Below the pieces are notes generated by a model. That model was not told the origin of the DNA. It saw only the letters and a program-made list of their open reading frames with translations, and ran no database searches. This document shows positions 9,128 to 33,487 of a stretch of 64,000 nt of DNA, piece after piece. The first letter of the stretch is position 1; each line of letters opens with the position of its first letter. Position numbers and translations under genes: made by a program. The DNA comes from a virus, in IMG/VR virus record IMGVR_UViG_3300028584_000287, positions 422-64,421 of that record; one strand, written 5' to 3'.

Positions 9128-9475
9128 TTATTCTTCGCTTTGACCAGAGATACGGTATTCTTCCAGCTCTTCCTGATAATCCTTCAAGCTTTGTTCTGCC
9201 ATTTCACCAATGGATTGAATACGCTTGAAGTAACCATGCAGTACAGATACACCAGCGAAATCACGCTGTACTTCGTCGAACTTGGCTTTGTTACCGGAAA
9301 TAACTGGATCAGCTAAAGAGCGAGCCAACTCAGCAGGATAATCACGGAAAAAACCGTTGTTGATAATACGCTGGAATGCGCGGTTACTTTGCAGGCTAAC
9401 TAAGTCATCACGCAATTTGATTTTATCTTTTGCGTCATTGATGCTTAATTCTAAAACTTCAATATTAACTTGCAT
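9128..9475 (-). CDS. N4 gp58-like protein
   Basis: 115 aa; L..NRAFQRII..GFF motif; synteny. Confidence 0.65.
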   Translation of the reverse strand: MQVNIEVLELSINDAKDKIKLRDDLVSLQSNRAFQRIINNGFFRDYPAELARSLADPVISGNKAKFDEVQRDFAGVSVLHGYFKRIQSIGEMAEQSLKDYQEELEEYRISGQSEE

Positions 9476-11624
9476 TGCTATTTCCTTTATTTAGTTGTGC
9501 TTTGGCAAACTCTAATTTGATATTGCCTTCAGCCTGTGCTTGTGATTTTTCTAACTCACGTTGCTGTTTAGTACCAGTTTCTTGTTCTAAGAAATCCAAG
9601 TCATTCAGATCAGCTTCTGTATTAAACTTACGTTGGCGAGCCAACTCAGTCTGTGCAATAGTAGGAGCATTATCTGCATCAGCTTGTTTCTTCGCAGCAG
9701 ATGATAACGTATCTTGTATCTGAGCTTCAAGCAATGCTATCTCTAATTCTGCCTTTTTAACAGCTAAAGGATCAGGTTCTTGTACAAAATTCTCTATTTT
9801 ACGTGCCAAATCTGGCATTTTTCGTAATCTTGCTATTTCTGCAAGTAGAATCTTGCCCATGTCTAAACCAAAAGTATTACCTACTGTCTGTAACATAAAG
9901 CTAAGTTCTTCAGCTTTTTGATTGTCTGTTTCAGCAGTACTAATGGTTAATCGAAGATCAAACTTACCTTGTAAATCTTCTTTCTTAATTGGTACATAAT
10001 CATCATCTGTGATCCGTACAACTTCAGCTTCATCTAAGAACAATGAGTTCATCATCATCATTTGACGGCCAATCTGTACCACACCTTCACCAGCACGACG
10101 TAAGATGTCGCTATCACGTTTTGCCGTGGCATCCATAGCAGAACGTACACCAGTGGCAGTGTTACCTACAGAGTTCCCTGAGATACCACCTGAGAACGAT
10201 TTGATACCGGTAAGAGCTTCCGCTTCAGCAGTATTCATTTCGATCATGAGCATTGCAGACTGTGGAATTTCTGGATACTTCATTTGATGGAACGCTAACG
10301 TTGGATCTACGTTAGGGTTAAATTCGAAATCATCCCCTGCTTTAAGCTTACGACTGTTGGTTGCATCTAAGGCATCCTTACGGTAACCAATCTGTGCGTT
10401 AGCGCTACGACCCATGGAATCAATCATACCGCGTTGAATTGCACCAACCACTGCTTGGTTATCCTTTAACAGTTCTGCGTCAGCTTCCCCGTATACGCTC
10501 TCTTCCAGTGGCATATATGGAACCACTACGAAAGGAAGGTAACCTTCTGGGTACGGGCTTAACTCCAACTGGATTAAGGTATTACCTACCCAAGTGGCAA
10601 CGATAGGAACCAGCAAGCCTGAACCATCAATGTCACGGTAACCCCAGTATTCATAGGCCACGACTTTCTGACGAGCCTCGTCGTTAAACTTAAATGCAAC
10701 AGTAGCACCGCTGTCGTAGTTATCTGGGGAAGCTAATGGACTAGCATTGGCAGTATTAACGTACTCTAAGTTTTTATAGCGACCGTCTGCTTTTAAATCA
10801 CCTAAACAGGTTTCAAACATGTGGATAATAAACTTAGCATCTTGGACATTACCTTTACAGGTAGGATCAATGATTACGTTCTTGTAGTTACATACTGTGA
10901 GTTCTGGATGGTTAGAAGTTACTACTTCAACCATTTCCTCTTTAGTACCTGTAATAACAGGGTAAATAGGAACATTGTTTTCCATAGTCATATTGATAGC
11001 TTCTTCCCATTCAGGAGTAACTAGCTGATCAAAACGATCTGGATCTGACTCAAACAATTCAATCCAAGTAGCTACTTCTTGCTCTTGGAATTTATCACTT
11101 GCTTCAATGAACTCAACTTCGTTGACTTCTTGCTTAACCTTGCCACGACGTTCCTTCCACGAAGTCTTGACGATAGCAGTACCATTGTTCACCAGAGAAC
11201 GAACATAGGTATCGAAGAACCGTACTCGAGAGATCGCAGTATTAAACTGTTGGTTCAGTACCAACTCATTTTGTCGTGCAGCCAACACATCCAAGTGAGT
11301 CATAGGACTTATCTTGAACAAATCCGGTGTACTTAGGAATGGTTCGCTAATCGCAGGATAACGCCATTCACACTGCTTGCGGATAAGCTTAGCGGTGTAA
11401 GTTGAACGAGTTTTAACTTTATCTTTATCACTAGGACGGGTTTCCCGAGATACCGGTCTATTTTGGAGTTCCTTTCTCCATTCCGATACCCGAGCAACCA
11501 TACTTTGGTGATCGGATAAAGCTGTATTCAAATCCTCTGCTAGAACCGTCTGTGTTGGTGCTTTGGACCAACTTGGTTGCAGCGAAGGAGCTTCGTTGGA
11601 TAAACGCTTCTCTTTAGGTTTCAT
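9465..11624 (-). CDS. Portal protein (N4 gp59-like)
   Basis: 719 aa from the ATG at 11624 (ORF track starts 12 codons earlier); PKLIRKQ-like KLIRKQCEWRYPAISEPFLST and AEALTGIKSFSGGISG motifs. Confidence 0.9.
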   Translation of the reverse strand: MKPKEKRLSNEAPSLQPSWSKAPTQTVLAEDLNTALSDHQSMVARVSEWRKELQNRPVSRETRPSDKDKVKTRSTYTAKLIRKQCEWRYPAISEPFLSTPDLFKISPMTHLDVLAARQNELVLNQQFNTAISRVRFFDTYVRSLVNNGTAIVKTSWKERRGKVKQEVNEVEFIEASDKFQEQEVATWIELFESDPDRFDQLVTPEWEEAINMTMENNVPIYPVITGTKEEMVEVVTSNHPELTVCNYKNVIIDPTCKGNVQDAKFIIHMFETCLGDLKADGRYKNLEYVNTANASPLASPDNYDSGATVAFKFNDEARQKVVAYEYWGYRDIDGSGLLVPIVATWVGNTLIQLELSPYPEGYLPFVVVPYMPLEESVYGEADAELLKDNQAVVGAIQRGMIDSMGRSANAQIGYRKDALDATNSRKLKAGDDFEFNPNVDPTLAFHQMKYPEIPQSAMLMIEMNTAEAEALTGIKSFSGGISGNSVGNTATGVRSAMDATAKRDSDILRRAGEGVVQIGRQMMMMNSLFLDEAEVVRITDDDYVPIKKEDLQGKFDLRLTISTAETDNQKAEELSFMLQTVGNTFGLDMGKILLAEIARLRKMPDLARKIENFVQEPDPLAVKKAELEIALLEAQIQDTLSSAAKKQADADNAPTIAQTELARQRKFNTEADLNDLDFLEQETGTKQQRELEKSQAQAEGNIKLEFAKAQLNKGNSNAS

Positions 11625-11667
11625 GGTTAACTCTCTAGGTTGTTTACAGTAGCTTACCACTAAAATG

Positions 11668-11692
11668 AAAAAGCCCTCAACTTTGAGGGCTT
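11668..11692 (-). terminator. Terminator after the holin, upstream of the portal
   Basis: AAGCCCTCA-4 nt-TGAGGGCTT with a T run on the minus strand. Confidence 0.75.
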
Positions 11693-11710: not shown

Positions 11711-12127
11711 TTATTTTGTCAAACCCTGCTTCTTTTCCCAAGAGCGCATACCACCTAAACCAAGCAACAATGCTACTAATTCAAATAGTACATCATTGTT
11801 TACTGCAGGCATAACCGCAGTACTTCCGGTATAGGTTAGGTAGGTTTGAACCATTGGATATAGGATGTATTGCCATGCCATAGCACAACCACCTACCCAA
11901 AGGATAAAAGGTCTTGCACCTGCTACAAATATGTTGGAGTGAGCTGCTTCTGTTTTGGCAACATCTGCTTGGGCCAATGCCAAATCACGGGAAACTTCTA
12001 GTTTCTTCAATTCACCATTTTGCTCAAGTTCAATTAAATGAAGCTTGGCTTCTGCAGCTTTTCCTTTGTCAGGTATGACTCGATCAAGGATATCCCCAAG
12101 TAAAGGGATTAGAGCGGCTATGCTCAT
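11711..12127 (-). CDS. Holin, 3TM/GTA-holin-like family
   Basis: 138 aa from the ATG at 12127 (ATGA overlap); FVAGARPFILWVGG..AWQYILYP and LLGLGGMRSWEK motifs. Confidence 0.75.
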   Translation of the reverse strand: MSIAALIPLLGDILDRVIPDKGKAAEAKLHLIELEQNGELKKLEVSRDLALAQADVAKTEAAHSNIFVAGARPFILWVGGCAMAWQYILYPMVQTYLTYTGSTAVMPAVNNDVLFELVALLLGLGGMRSWEKKQGLTK

Positions 12128-12576
12128 TTTACAGTGCTCCGTTCTGCTAACCGTAAGGTAAGCTGTTTTAACTGGCATATACCTTTCGATAATGCAGTAC
12201 GTTGAACGATATTACGCAACTCGTCCGGTTGGGTTGGTTTTGTAACTACATCCACTGAGCCAAGCGTAAAGGCTAAACGCGCTATGTCGTTATCCTTGCA
12301 ACCTGTTTCGGGGGTTATAAACACTATTGGGGTATCCTCCAACTGCGATACTTTTTTCATTTCCAACGCTAAAAGGAAACCATCCTTGGTAGGTAAACCA
12401 ACTGATATAATAATCAGCTGTGGATTAATAACTTTAGCTACGTTAGTAGCTTCGTGAGGTTCGGTACAAACAACTACCTCATCCCCAGCTCGTTTATATT
12501 CCACCATAAGATCGTTTGCAGTCTTAGGGACGTCTTCTACGATAAGTACTATTGTTTTAAGGCTTTTATTAATCAT
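12124..12576 (-). CDS. CheY-like single receiver domain, atypical (pseudo-receiver)
   Basis: 150 aa from the ATG at 12576; VLIVED, PQLIIISVGLPTKDG (Ser at the canonical Asp), PIVFIT, DVVTKP follow the receiver fold pattern. Confidence 0.8.
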   Translation of the reverse strand: MINKSLKTIVLIVEDVPKTANDLMVEYKRAGDEVVVCTEPHEATNVAKVINPQLIIISVGLPTKDGFLLALEMKKVSQLEDTPIVFITPETGCKDNDIARLAFTLGSVDVVTKPTQPDELRNIVQRTALSKGICQLKQLTLRLAERSTVK

Positions 12577-12787
12577 CTGATAAATTCCTGCCTCGGAGTT
12601 TCTCTTCAAAGAGTGCATAACGAGCAACACTCAGGTCATTTTCAATCTTGTGAATAACAGCAACCATCGCTTTTATCCCATCGTTCAAGTCTTTAATCTG
12701 CTGGTCTGTCTTAGATTTGTCATAGAAGAACCAAGCTTGGATGACACCTAATAGGACCATAATTATATCAGTGGCGTTCAATTGCAT
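12569..12787 (-). CDS. Small single-TM plus coiled-coil protein (holin/antiholin-like)
   Basis: 72 aa from the ATG at 12787 with AAGGA RBS; TM IIMVLLGVIQAWFFY then a coiled coil; located in the lysis cluster. Confidence 0.55.
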   Translation of the reverse strand: MQLNATDIIMVLLGVIQAWFFYDKSKTDQQIKDLNDGIKAMVAVIHKIENDLSVARYALFEEKLRGRNLSDD

Positions 12788-12861
12788 TTTAGATCCTTGT
12801 ATTCCCATCCTTGAGGGTTTCCCCAAGTACTGCAGTAATCAGGTTTCCCTAGTGGTAGTAT

Positions 12862-12888
12862 AAATAAAAAACGCCCACAAAGGGCGTT
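12862..12888 (-). terminator. Terminator after the endolysin
   Basis: Minus strand AACGCCC-TTTGT-GGGCGTT-TTTATTT. Confidence 0.7.
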
Positions 12889-12912
12889 AATTTATCTAAA
12901 TGTAACGGCTAA

Positions 12913-13314
12913 CTACTTCTGCCCCCACCATGCTTTCACATTGAACGTAGGACAAGATTTGCCTTCATCAAGATCAGTATGCCCGCATACCTCTGCAGTA
13001 GGATACTTGGTAGTTAGATCTGACACAAGTTTATCTAATGTAGCCCATTGTTTTCTCGTGAAATTACAAGGGTTCTCCCGACCCCGAGCTTTACCGCCAA
13101 CCATACAAATACCGATACTACCGGTATTGTGTCCTTGTACGTGAGCACCTGTAACGTTCTCTTCTCGCCCCTTCTCAATTGAACCATCGCGACGAATCAC
13201 ATAATGGTAGCCAATTCGGTCGAAGCCACGAGTAATGTGCCACTCGTTAATCTCTTTTACACCTATGTCCATATCTGCAAAAGTATCTGCACAATGTACT
13301 ACGATTTTTTTCAT
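12913..13314 (-). CDS. Endolysin, N-acetylmuramoyl-L-alanine amidase (T7 lysozyme-like)
   Basis: IVVHC, GYHYVI, GAHVQGHN, SIGICMVGG, VCGHTD, KSCP Zn-amidase motifs. Confidence 0.92.
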   Translation of the reverse strand: MKKIVVHCADTFADMDIGVKEINEWHITRGFDRIGYHYVIRRDGSIEKGREENVTGAHVQGHNTGSIGICMVGGKARGRENPCNFTRKQWATLDKLVSDLTTKYPTAEVCGHTDLDEGKSCPTFNVKAWWGQK

Positions 13315-14813
13315 GGGTTCACTGCCTCTTTAAGGTAATCCATAATATCAATAGCGTTAGCTAAACTTTGTTCATAAGTGTAGTTAGTATATAAGTTATC
13401 TACATCATAGAACTCTACAGCAGCATCGCCCTGTCTGTAAAGCTTAAGTATTGTACCTGCGGGAACTGAATTAACTGGATCTGTGTCACTATATCCTTTA
13501 TCCCATGTAACCAGCCTATCGTTAACTTTTACACTAATGTCGGTGTACACTGCAGGATATAAACCTATATAAAAAGCGTACATATTAGTAGAATAAACTA
13601 CCCTTCCTCCGAACCTAAGTCGGTTTCTCACCATCTTTTTATGTACAGGATTTACACCAACGTAGCTATCAGTGTCAGTTACAATTACATCAAATATGGC
13701 TACACCGTTTTTTATAAACTCTATCCGTCTGTCTAACCAAGGTGTAGCAGGGTTTGGTACTATTTTTGTGAAACGTAAAATGTAATCCCCTGCTGTTTCA
13801 AATACAGTATAAGGTAGTACCATTGTATGATAAAACCTATCAGCTGAGTTAAACTGATCAAACCCCCCACCTTTAAGAGTTAACAATACATTCTCATAAC
13901 TTCCTTCAGCATTAGAAGGATCTCTTCTAAATGCTAATGAGAATAGCTGACCATCATCACTCCCTGGGGTATAGTCACTTGTAGAGTTATGTTCTGCTAT
14001 TACATGTACATACTGATCGTAGGTAAAATCATTAGTATACGATGTATCCGAACCTATATAAGCATCCTTTAACCGCTTCTCTAACACACATCTAGTTACA
14101 GGTTTGGCTATTGTAAACTTAAGCTCAAAATCGTTATTCTTCATGTTTTCTAATACAGGTCTGTTAGACTCCAGTATTTTAAACATCATGTTGGAACCAT
14201 CTTGAGCATCTTGGTAGGAATACGTTACCTGAAATCTGTTCCCTGTATTCATACCTGAATTCAACAGCCTAAGCCCTAACTGTGTGACCCCTGTGTAATA
14301 TGGAATAGCGTATACATCGCGCTGTAGACGCATGTACGCACTGTTATTCTCAACATAGAAGATTGCCACATCTGACGTTGGATCACTTGTGTTGGCTCTC
14401 CGGTCGAAATCAATCAAAGGTGTCTTGCCGTTGACTGTAATAACCTGCGTGGTCAACTGACCGAGCTGACTATTAAAGTACCATAGCTTCAATATGGTTC
14501 CTTCTGCGTAGAATAGAACTGCTTGGCCAAGGGCATCAAACCCTAGAGCCAAGTCAGTGATCCCTGCAGAAAGCTCTACAAGAAGCGTAGGAGCACCCCA
14601 TACCGTACCGGTAGCTTTGTATAAGTAAACCTTATTGTCTTCGACAGAAGCCATCCAAATAGCTTTGTCTACACGTTCCTTGGAGTCCCCTAACTCAAGG
14701 GGACCAAGTTTAACATCATAAAGGAAAGCGTACCGTTCTGACGGTACAGCAATCCCATTGTAATCGAACTTCTCAGGCTTGCTTTTACAAGCCCATCTTT
14801 CGGTGATGATCAT
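13311..14813 (-). CDS. Tail tip / receptor-binding protein
   Basis: 500 aa, beta-rich; DLALGFDALGQAV, SDVAIFY, MRLQRDVYAIPY N-terminal module; last gene of the tail cluster. Confidence 0.6.
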   Translation of the reverse strand: MIITERWACKSKPEKFDYNGIAVPSERYAFLYDVKLGPLELGDSKERVDKAIWMASVEDNKVYLYKATGTVWGAPTLLVELSAGITDLALGFDALGQAVLFYAEGTILKLWYFNSQLGQLTTQVITVNGKTPLIDFDRRANTSDPTSDVAIFYVENNSAYMRLQRDVYAIPYYTGVTQLGLRLLNSGMNTGNRFQVTYSYQDAQDGSNMMFKILESNRPVLENMKNNDFELKFTIAKPVTRCVLEKRLKDAYIGSDTSYTNDFTYDQYVHVIAEHNSTSDYTPGSDDGQLFSLAFRRDPSNAEGSYENVLLTLKGGGFDQFNSADRFYHTMVLPYTVFETAGDYILRFTKIVPNPATPWLDRRIEFIKNGVAIFDVIVTDTDSYVGVNPVHKKMVRNRLRFGGRVVYSTNMYAFYIGLYPAVYTDISVKVNDRLVTWDKGYSDTDPVNSVPAGTILKLYRQGDAAVEFYDVDNLYTNYTYEQSLANAIDIMDYLKEAVNP

Positions 14814-32614: not shown

Positions 32615-33227
32615 AATTTTATGGGACTTGCATCATAGCAGTGATGTAGGTAATGCAGTAGAAGGCTTAGCTGAATTAGCTGTAGCTTTAGAAAATGAGC
32701 GTGATGCTTTAAGCGCTCAAAACAAGACTTTCATAGATTTTTTAAAAGGTCTAAGTGAATTGCATACCTACGGTGCTGATGAAGCAAAAGAACTACTTGC
32801 AGGGAATTCAGAACAAGATCTACCAATTCACAAAGCAAATACAGACAAGCTGGCAGAGTTAGCCTTGTACTGTGTACAACGTAAAATTGGTCGTGGTGGT
32901 CAAGAAGCACACGAAGCAATAATGCTTTATTGTGATGTTTTGACTGCACAGCTTGAGCTAATGCACCAAGGAGTTTTATCTTACCTGAACAATTCCATAA
33001 CTTCGAGGGATGAAGAAGTTAACTGGAAAAAGTTAGTACGTATACTGGAATCAAACCCTCAACAATGCCTCACAGAAATTAAGGCAATAGCTATTGAAGA
33101 AGCAATCGGTGAATGCTTATCAGCCATTGATGACAATGCAGCTATTAAGCTTGTCCCCTTTGGTTATTTGTTATCAGAAAAATGGTTACTCCATTACGCT
33201 GAGAAAGTCCGTCGAGGTGATGAGTGA
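32601..33227 (+). CDS. Mosaic hypothetical protein
   Basis: Shares a PQQC(I/L) module with the upstream gene. Confidence 0.6.
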   Translation: MNLSKILWDLHHSSDVGNAVEGLAELAVALENERDALSAQNKTFIDFLKGLSELHTYGADEAKELLAGNSEQDLPIHKANTDKLAELALYCVQRKIGRGGQEAHEAIMLYCDVLTAQLELMHQGVLSYLNNSITSRDEEVNWKKLVRILESNPQQCLTEIKAIAIEEAIGECLSAIDDNAAIKLVPFGYLLSEKWLLHYAEKVRRGDE

Positions 33228-33487
33228 TTAAACTACTTAAATCTTTTGCTTGGTTATTTGTCCTAACCTTGGCAGGTTGTGATACGTATGAACAAGTACC
33301 AATGAATGTAACCGAAAAAGCTAATGAGCTTTGCTCAACCATGGGGGGAGTTAAACAGTTATACGTCAAGTCTTGGTCAGATAATCCAAAAGTATCCAGT
33401 AGTCCGATGAATACCAAACTACTTGTGACCTGTAGAAAGCATAATGCTGAGGTATCAAGTACATTTCAATGGGAAAGAGAATTATGA
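33224..33487 (+). CDS. Lipoprotein
   Basis: Signal peptide MIKLLKSFAWLFVLTLAG-C with an LAGC lipobox. Confidence 0.75.
   Translation: MIKLLKSFAWLFVLTLAGCDTYEQVPMNVTEKANELCSTMGGVKQLYVKSWSDNPKVSSSPMNTKLLVTCRKHNAEVSSTFQWEREL

Follow-up and report, generated by a model that had tools for sequence, protein, structure and literature searches.

An aspartate-less receiver paired with a small membrane protein in the lysis cassette of an N4-like phage

The lysis locus and its receiver

The IMG/VR record IMGVR_UViG_3300028584_000287 comes from an uncultured phage; it is 64,855 bp long and has an estimated completeness of 87%. The window analysed here is a stretch of 64,000 nucleotides (positions 422 to 64,421) which makes up most of this record, and the positions given for it below count from its first letter. 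Among its lysis genes lies a gene for a single-domain receiver without the phospho-accepting aspartate, preceded by a gene for a 72-amino-acid (aa) membrane protein. The phage is N4-like. It encodes both subunits of an N4-type RNA polymerase II and an N4-type primase, polymerase, terminase and major head protein; its portal, which is of the SU10/N4 type, is a further N4-like mark. Metagenomes of 11 studies, from lakes, freshwater, runoff and wastewater, contain near-identical DNA. The genes and features of the locus, in the direction of transcription, are:

13311..14813, minus strand: tail-fibre-like gene, 500 aa (phrog_4950 tail fiber, E 1.5e-22)
12913..13314, minus strand: endolysin, an N-acetylmuramoyl-L-alanine amidase of 133 aa (PF01510 Amidase_2, 64.3 bits; phrog_822 amidase, E 1e-60)
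12870..12888, minus strand: intrinsic-terminator-like hairpin at the boundary between the amidase and the three genes that follow (7-bp stem, 5 GC pairs, tail TTTTATTTAT, a T-run)
12569..12787, minus strand: membrane partner of 72 aa (member of a 23-cluster family, without a match to a known family)
12124..12576, minus strand: single-domain aspartate-less receiver (pseudo-receiver) of 150 aa (PF00072, structure model, alignments)
11711..12127, minus strand: holin of 138 aa, GTA_holin_3TM family (PF11351, 71.6 bits; phrog_3427 holin, E 5e-31)
11671..11692, minus strand: intrinsic-terminator-like hairpin at the end of the three-gene operon (9-bp stem, 5 GC pairs, T-rich tail)
9465..11660, minus strand: SU10/N4-type portal gene (PF23899, 417 bits; its position matches that of N4 gp59 beside the N4 lysis genes)

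A sequence-only reading of this DNA had described the order amidase, 72-aa protein, receiver and three-transmembrane (3TM) holin, with overlaps of 8 nt and ATGA, and the sequence confirms it. The ATG of the receiver gene lies within ATGATTAA, where it overlaps the stop of the 72-aa gene by 8 nt; the holin start and the receiver stop share an ATGA. Each gene of this trio has a Shine-Dalgarno-like AGGA or GGAG 6-9 nt 5' of it. Longer GTG, TTG and ATG starts proposed by the open reading frame (ORF) finder (168, 85 and 155 aa) were dropped; the ATG starts fit the homologue lengths and the ribosome-binding sites. The holin scores well above the PF11351 threshold (71.6 against 24.8 bits) and has hydrophobic segments at about residues 1-18, 66-83 and 105-122.

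A terminator scan over 5.7 kb gave 14 sites against a chance expectation of 4.2, and the hairpins at 12888..12870 and 11692..11671 are the two best. Since they bracket the 72-aa gene, the receiver gene and the holin gene, the trio is read as a small operon of its own. By the hairpin at 12888..12870 the amidase belongs to the preceding tail-fibre operon. Endolysin and holin are thus in separate transcription units, with a terminator between them and with the amidase start overlapping the stop of the tail-fibre-like gene as an ATGA (13311-13314).

The receiver fold is supported by several results, as the sequence-only reading had expected. The protein scores 49.2 bits against PF00072, above the curated cut-off of 30.2, and the profile of its family matches the solved receivers PleD, CheY, RR468 and YycF with E values of 1e-16 to 1e-20. 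The AlphaFold2 (AF2) model has a predicted local distance difference test score (pLDDT) of 84 and a predicted template modelling score (pTM) of 0.81. It shows the (beta-alpha)5 topology, b1-a1 to b5-a5, with strands at residues 9-13, 33-37, 54-58, 84-88 and 107-112 alternating with helices at 17-29, 40-50, 66-74, 95-104 and 117-148. In Foldseek searches of solved structures the top matches are all receivers, with target TM-scores of 0.8-0.9 (maximum 0.90), and the top 50 are mostly receivers.

The replacement of aspartate by serine at the phosphoacceptor position, also noted in that reading, is real. Ser58 (codon TCA) is the last residue of strand b3 (54-58) and is aligned to the phospho-accepting Asp53 of PleD, so that the receiver has no phospho-accepting Asp at the end of b3. 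The rest of the active site is kept, again as described: Glu14-Asp15, the metal-binding pair, Thr88 and Lys113-Pro114 are all present, and they are invariant within the clade of closest relatives (clade A, below). The aromatic switch residue at K-3 (Y-T coupling) is gone; Val110 stands there in the window, and the members of clade A have either Val or Leu. Helix a5 is extended to residue 148 and carries a conserved Cys134-Gln135. The invariant Glu14/Asp15, Thr88 and Lys113 around Ser58 leave room for metal or ligand binding, for docking of a partner, or for phosphorylation of the serine. The protein fits the aspartate-less subclass of pseudo-receivers, which are receivers by computation but have no Asp phosphorylation site (definition in PMC12632262). 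No HATPase_c, HisKA or Hpt match is found in the 64.9-kb, 87%-complete record; without a phage-encoded kinase, any phospho-partner must be host-derived.

Receiver family and membrane partner

Sequence searches place the receiver in a family of about 23 clusters (90% identity) with proteins of 138-162 aa. A sharp score gap, from 184 to 128 bits, separates the family from ordinary receivers; the matches at 128 bits are tandem receivers. Matches of 263-278 aa to the family profile were considered as fusions and rejected, being ordinary tandem receivers. A scan of genome contigs found no bacterial copy of the family, only generic cellular receivers (cyanobacterial hybrid kinase). A scan of viral contigs with the receiver alignment found two loci; scans of viral contigs with the single receiver and with the alignment of the small protein gave no match. 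To judge from these searches, the family is phage-only.

Three clades are distinguished by their active sites. Clade A holds nine sequences including that of the window, 59-97% identical, and reads E-D / S / T / K-P. Clade B, with about ten sequences, reads D-D / D / S / K-P with Phe at K-3 and is fully canonical. Clade C, with five sequences, reads H-N / D / Y / T-(D/E); it retains the Asp and the Phe at K-3, and has lost the metal site, the Thr and the Lys. In a maximum-likelihood tree of the family and 44 other receivers, the family forms one group (support 100/90), as do clade A (100/99) and clade C (100/100), the latter nested beside a canonical member. Given the canonical active sites of clade B and of the outgroups, the chemistry of phosphorylation has been lost twice, each time in a different way. 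By the tree and alignments the Ser form is a derived state inside an otherwise canonical family, in which clade B and the other canonical members are probably phosphorylatable receivers.

Ser58 is fixed in all nine clade A sequences. It is encoded by TCA or TCT where the other clades have GAT or GAC, and TCN codons are two to three steps from GAY; the change from Asp to Ser is thus an old and fixed one. These points bear on the proposal in the sequence-only reading that the receiver works independently of phosphorylation. The fixed serine, the loss of the K-3 aromatic residue and the independent losses in a second clade speak for it.

In comparison with a 91%-identical relative, the ratio of nonsynonymous to synonymous substitution rates (dN/dS) comes to 0.083 in the receiver gene, 0.09 in that of the 72-aa partner and 0.12 in that of the holin. 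The receiver gene is under strong purifying selection and is not decaying. The positions best conserved across clades are in b3, in the a3-b4 loop and b4, and at the end of a4 (L-A-F-T). The a5 extension, with an amphipathic pattern around Cys/Tyr134-Gln135, is also among the best conserved. Helix a1 is the main element by which receivers usually dock to kinases; here it has no position that is identical across the three clade consensuses.

The 72-aa protein has no Pfam or PHROG family match and defines a family of its own with 23 clusters. It had been predicted to contain a transmembrane (TM) segment, and a single hydrophobic segment is found. This is short (15-16 residues or so, at about residues 8-22), with invariant Gly14 and Gln17, and is followed by an invariant Asp-Lys. 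AF2 gives a single helix from residue 5 to 69 at low confidence (pLDDT 66). No positive charges precede the hydrophobic segment and lysines follow it; this charge pattern favours an N-out/C-in orientation, which we infer for the protein. In every locus read, the receiver gene lies directly 3' of a gene of the 72-aa family, and the two genes overlap in all loci except L012. As judged from these loci, the constant partner of the receiver is a membrane protein of about 70 aa and not the 3TM holin.

Lysis cassettes carrying the pair

The sequence-only reading had placed the receiver in a lysis cassette, and in the loci read its homologues are tightly linked to lysis genes. Among the N4-like relatives, the pair of membrane partner and receiver is always inside the lysis cassette or at its edge, and the other lysis genes are swapped. 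Three arrangements in relatives are:

DUF5675 gene, pair, 3TM holin
Peptidase_M15_3 gene, pair, i-spanin (Rz/Rz1) with an overlapping lipobox gene, two-transmembrane (2TM) holin-like gene
2TM holin, SLT gene, DUF2514 spanin with an embedded lipoprotein gene, DUF1353 gene, pair

Four endolysin types are found beside the receiver family, including the Amidase_2 of the window. Tail-fibre genes flank the cassette both in the window and in relatives. Clade C members (L013:4203-4625 and L015:4170-4631; also P0187 and P0190-P0193) lie between Peptidase_M15_3 endolysin and spanin genes. The DUF5675 protein (phrog_1501; L001:5293-5682, L003:5327-5719) occupies the exact slot of the Amidase_2, Peptidase_M15_3 or SLT endolysins of relatives; from this position it may be an unrecognised endolysin family. 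A conserved DUF1353 protein of 110 aa lies between the spanins and the pair in clade B (L009:3567-3899, L012:1413-1745, L007:3334-3666).

The cassettes of clade B and C relatives contain DUF2514-type spanins, unlike that of the window. No spanin was recognised beside the lysis genes or elsewhere in the 87%-complete record (lipobox scan; no match to the DUF2514 and Phage_lysis profiles). The only convincing lipoprotein in the window is an 87-aa ORF in the early/middle region (33224-33487, plus strand) with the lipobox L-A-G-C; it may serve in superinfection exclusion or be an o-spanin that has been displaced. A blastn search of the lysis region against phage records gave weak matches to the endolysin only. 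In phage N4, the same slot between the tail genes and the portal gene holds gp63, the holin gp62, the GH108 endolysin gp61 and the Rz-like spanin gp60; a receiver is absent there, and no N4 protein is homologous to the 72-aa protein.

Analogous pairs adjoin lysis genes in five lineages of cultured Alteromonas phages:

siphophages R9Y1-3: TM121, canonical receiver and GH108 lysozyme, all overlapping
T7-like R8W and H4: class II holin, TM98, receiver, membrane protein
myophage V22 (L019, MN877442.1 24959-27038): papain-like amidase gp28, gp29, receiver gp30, gp31, gp32
siphophage PB15: coiled-coil/TM protein, receiver, M15 peptidase, GTA_holin_3TM
N4-like PT11-V19 (L018:3498-3950, OP751378.1): TM93 and a degenerate receiver

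The R8W pair lies between the holin and terminase genes. In V22, gp31 matches a PHROG of Rz-like spanins; gp32, with its two hydrophobic segments, resembles a class II holin. The PT11-V19 receiver scores 29.9 bits, just below the Pfam threshold of 30.2, and by eye it has no Asp, Thr or Lys at the respective positions; with its TM93 partner, it would be a third and separate degenerate receiver. A juxtamembrane WF(W/F)YDK motif is common to V22 gp29 and the 72-aa family (hhalign probability 85%). In the tree, a weak branch (31/88) puts the Alteromonas receivers together with the window family, so that a common origin of the two is possible. No homology is claimed between the 72-aa family and the PT11-V19 partner, or between the 3TM holin of the window and R8W gp49; neither profile comparison is significant.

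Some of these genes have been described before under other headings. The receiver gene has been reported as an auxiliary metabolic gene (AMG), 'CheY-like class II', in a 'host recognition module' shared by V22, A5 and P24, in which gp29, gp31 and gp32 were called unknown (PMC7289586, PMC10579305). R8W gp48 has been published as a 'PhoB' AMG for adaptation to low phosphate (PMC8228385). The gene content suggests that part of the V22 'host recognition module' is a lysis cassette. Full-text searches found no literature that links a receiver domain to a phage lysis cassette. In the loci compared, many phages that are unrelated to each other carry the pair of membrane protein and receiver among their lysis genes, and the pair is uncharacterised. 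What is new here is above all the aspartate-less and degenerate receiver clades.

Possible roles and known systems

Obligatory pairing, an address in the lysis cassette, and phosphorylation that is dispensable in two clades make a membrane-tethered adaptor, working on the lysis machinery through protein contacts, the simplest reading. Phosphorylation would be an optional signal for canonical members, lacking in the clade of the window. As is typical of antiholins and holin regulators, the pair is encoded within the lysis cassette and co-expressed with it; its genes overlap between two terminators and their position is kept in relatives. We tentatively favour, at somewhat less than an even chance, a membrane-tethered regulator of holin triggering which is independent of phosphorylation. 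The 72-aa protein and the receiver would make up a phage-specific module of two proteins for the control of lysis, produced along with the holin from a single late operon. The small protein would span the inner membrane, probably N-out/C-in, and continue as a long cytoplasmic helix. This helix would hold the cytoplasmic receiver at the membrane, probably through the a4-b5-a5 face of the receiver and its extended a5. The membrane-held pair would modulate the moment at which the holin triggers; most likely it would restrain the holin in the manner of an antiholin. In phage T4, the membrane-tethered antiholin RI and the cytoplasmic antiholin RIII jointly restrain the holin T, and they are the functional precedent for such restraint. 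In canonical clades, the receiver Asp could allow host phospho-donors (acetyl phosphate, or a host kinase or Hpt) to toggle the contact. In the window clade the switch would be hard-wired, with Ser58 in place of Asp and the aromatic switch residue lost, and the effect would depend on protein dosage from translational coupling and not on phosphorylation. How the partner lies in the membrane, whether it touches the receiver, that the holin is the target and in which direction the effect goes are what we infer here; delay as the direction is the least secure part.

Several points weigh against this reading. The pair of clade B is at the cassette edge with a structural gene after it, and the borders of lysis cassettes are known hot spots for unrelated 'moron' genes. 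The topology of the partner is ambiguous and its hydrophobic stretch is short; if its C-terminus were periplasmic, a cytoplasmic receiver could not touch it. Contact between the two proteins gains no support from complex prediction (receiver with residues 23-72 of the 72-aa protein; score 0.01, which is neither support nor contrary evidence). A purely structural adaptor role does not explain why the Ser clade retains E14, D15, T88 and K113. It should also be noted that tail-fibre and lysis regions swap as blocks between Alteromonas phages (PMC10579305); given such exchange and recombination of modules, the lineages with the pair are not fully independent.

A broader version, possible but doubtful, is a widespread two-protein lysis clock that couples holin triggering to the phosphorylation or energy state of the host. 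The window clade would then be hard-wired. Alternatively, Ser58, which sits in an otherwise intact Mg/Thr/Lys pocket, might itself be phosphorylated as a stable latch, with a stable phosphate instead of a labile acyl phosphate.

Other explanations place the function outside the normal timing of lysis. One is interference with host signalling, in which the receiver would be a late decoy, an idea also raised in the sequence-only reading; in the host it would dock to a histidine kinase, a phosphatase, an Hpt or a response-regulator target. Canonical clades could act as a phosphate sink, host physiology would be rewired, and the gene would be near lysis genes only because the border tolerates insertions. 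Receivers normally work with kinases, and for a phage without its own kinase the phospho-partner must be that of the host. The Ser clade keeps its metal-binding pair, Thr and Lys under selection, as if the active-site face docked something, and relatives are annotated as CheY-like or PhoB AMGs (PMC7289586, PMC10579305, PMC8228385). However, helix a1 has no position in common across the three clades, one clade has no acidic pair or Lys, and another has no Asp. Given these differing losses, the conserved function can be neither a phosphate sink nor common docking at the active site. Three features point to lysis: the membrane partner is obligatory, translation is coupled to that of the holin, and the pair persists in cassettes whose other genes are swapped. 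We regard host interference as unlikely.

Another is a sensor for lysis inhibition or superinfection. The pair would relay an envelope or superinfection signal which delays lysis, as T4 RI and RIII do, or would exclude secondary phages; normal timing would not be set by it. The membrane-tethered and cytoplasmic components parallel RI and RIII, and the short Gly/Gln-rich hydrophobic segment of the partner recalls releasable signal-anchor domains. Delayed lysis is also a known trait of N4-type phages; N4 itself, however, does not have the pair. There is no sequence similarity to RI or RIII, and only receiver families are matched; we give this explanation a small chance. Finally, the pair may be a passenger of the tail-fibre or host-recognition block, inherited with its structural neighbours and acting in virion assembly, in host recognition, or in no way on lysis. 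Tail-fibre genes do flank the cassette in the window and its relatives, and genes for tail fibres and chaperones accompany the CheY-like gene in V22, A5 and P24 (PMC10579305). However, the V22 module includes the papain-like amidase, the Rz-like spanin and the 2TM protein, so that this part of it looks like a lysis cassette; the R8W pair sits between holin and terminase genes, and the receiver is cytoplasmic and has no features of a virion protein. A passenger role is improbable.

Lysis timing sets phage fitness. To our knowledge, only a few regulators of it have been described (antiholins, RI/RIII, dual-start holins), and model coliphages are their source. The receiver domain is a universal bacterial phospho-switch. 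If the favoured regulator of holin triggering is real, the receivers built into lysis cassettes of podo-, sipho- and myophages would form a class of lysis regulators of a new kind, and through them the physiology of the host could influence the decision to lyse. The family is also a natural experiment: in two clades the phosphorylation chemistry has gone, and yet strong selection has preserved the gene together with its partner and its location. At its core the function must therefore rest on protein contact, with phosphorylation only modulating it. The window also suggests that 'CheY-like' and 'PhoB' AMG labels in marine phage genomes should be re-read as components of lysis cassettes. The cultured Alteromonas phages are a ready test system for the role of the pair in lysis.

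The cassette of Escherichia phage N4 occupies the same genomic slot in the same phage family as that of the window. The holin and endolysin families differ; the N4 slot contains the spanin gp60, and none is recognised in the window record. The likeness to T4 RI and RIII is a works-like analogy only, namely a small membrane-anchored protein and a small cytoplasmic protein among lysis genes. The window proteins are related to RI and RIII in neither sequence nor fold, and the functional domain of RI is periplasmic.

Aspartate-less receivers (ALR) and pseudo-receivers (PsR) such as Helicobacter pylori HP1021 and HP1043, Streptococcus pneumoniae RitR and Myxococcus FrzS (PMC12632262) have the PF00072 fold without the phospho-accepting Asp, as does the window receiver, and action free of phosphorylation would be expected of it too. 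The FrzS receiver is among its Foldseek structural matches, and its conserved C37 and C134 recall the redox-regulated PsRs of PMC12632262. Unlike the ALR/PsR proteins, the window receiver is a stand-alone protein of 150 aa with no DNA-binding or other output domain. It also differs from them in being phage-encoded, paired with a membrane protein and placed in a lysis operon, and in keeping the other four active-site residues.

In size, fold and absence of an output domain, the window receiver is like CheY, Spo0F, DivK and CpdR, which are single-domain regulators that act by contact. The canonical clades of the phage family also keep the DD-D-S/T-K quintet and the aromatic residue at K-3, as CheY-type regulators do. 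Unlike these regulators, the window receiver cannot take a phosphoryl group on Asp, and the phage encodes neither a cognate kinase nor an Hpt for it; its helix a5 is extended by 30 residues and its partner is a small membrane protein.

A further parallel is offered by the receivers of Alteromonas phages. They differ from the window family in sequence (about 28-33% identity), the Asp is kept in all but PT11-V19, and the published reading is one of host metabolism or a host-recognition module. Like the window receiver, V22 gp30, A5 gp11, R8W gp48 and that of P24 are single-domain receivers of about 150 aa which have a small membrane or coiled-coil gene upstream and lie beside lysis enzymes; A5 is also, like the window phage, an N4-like schitovirus.

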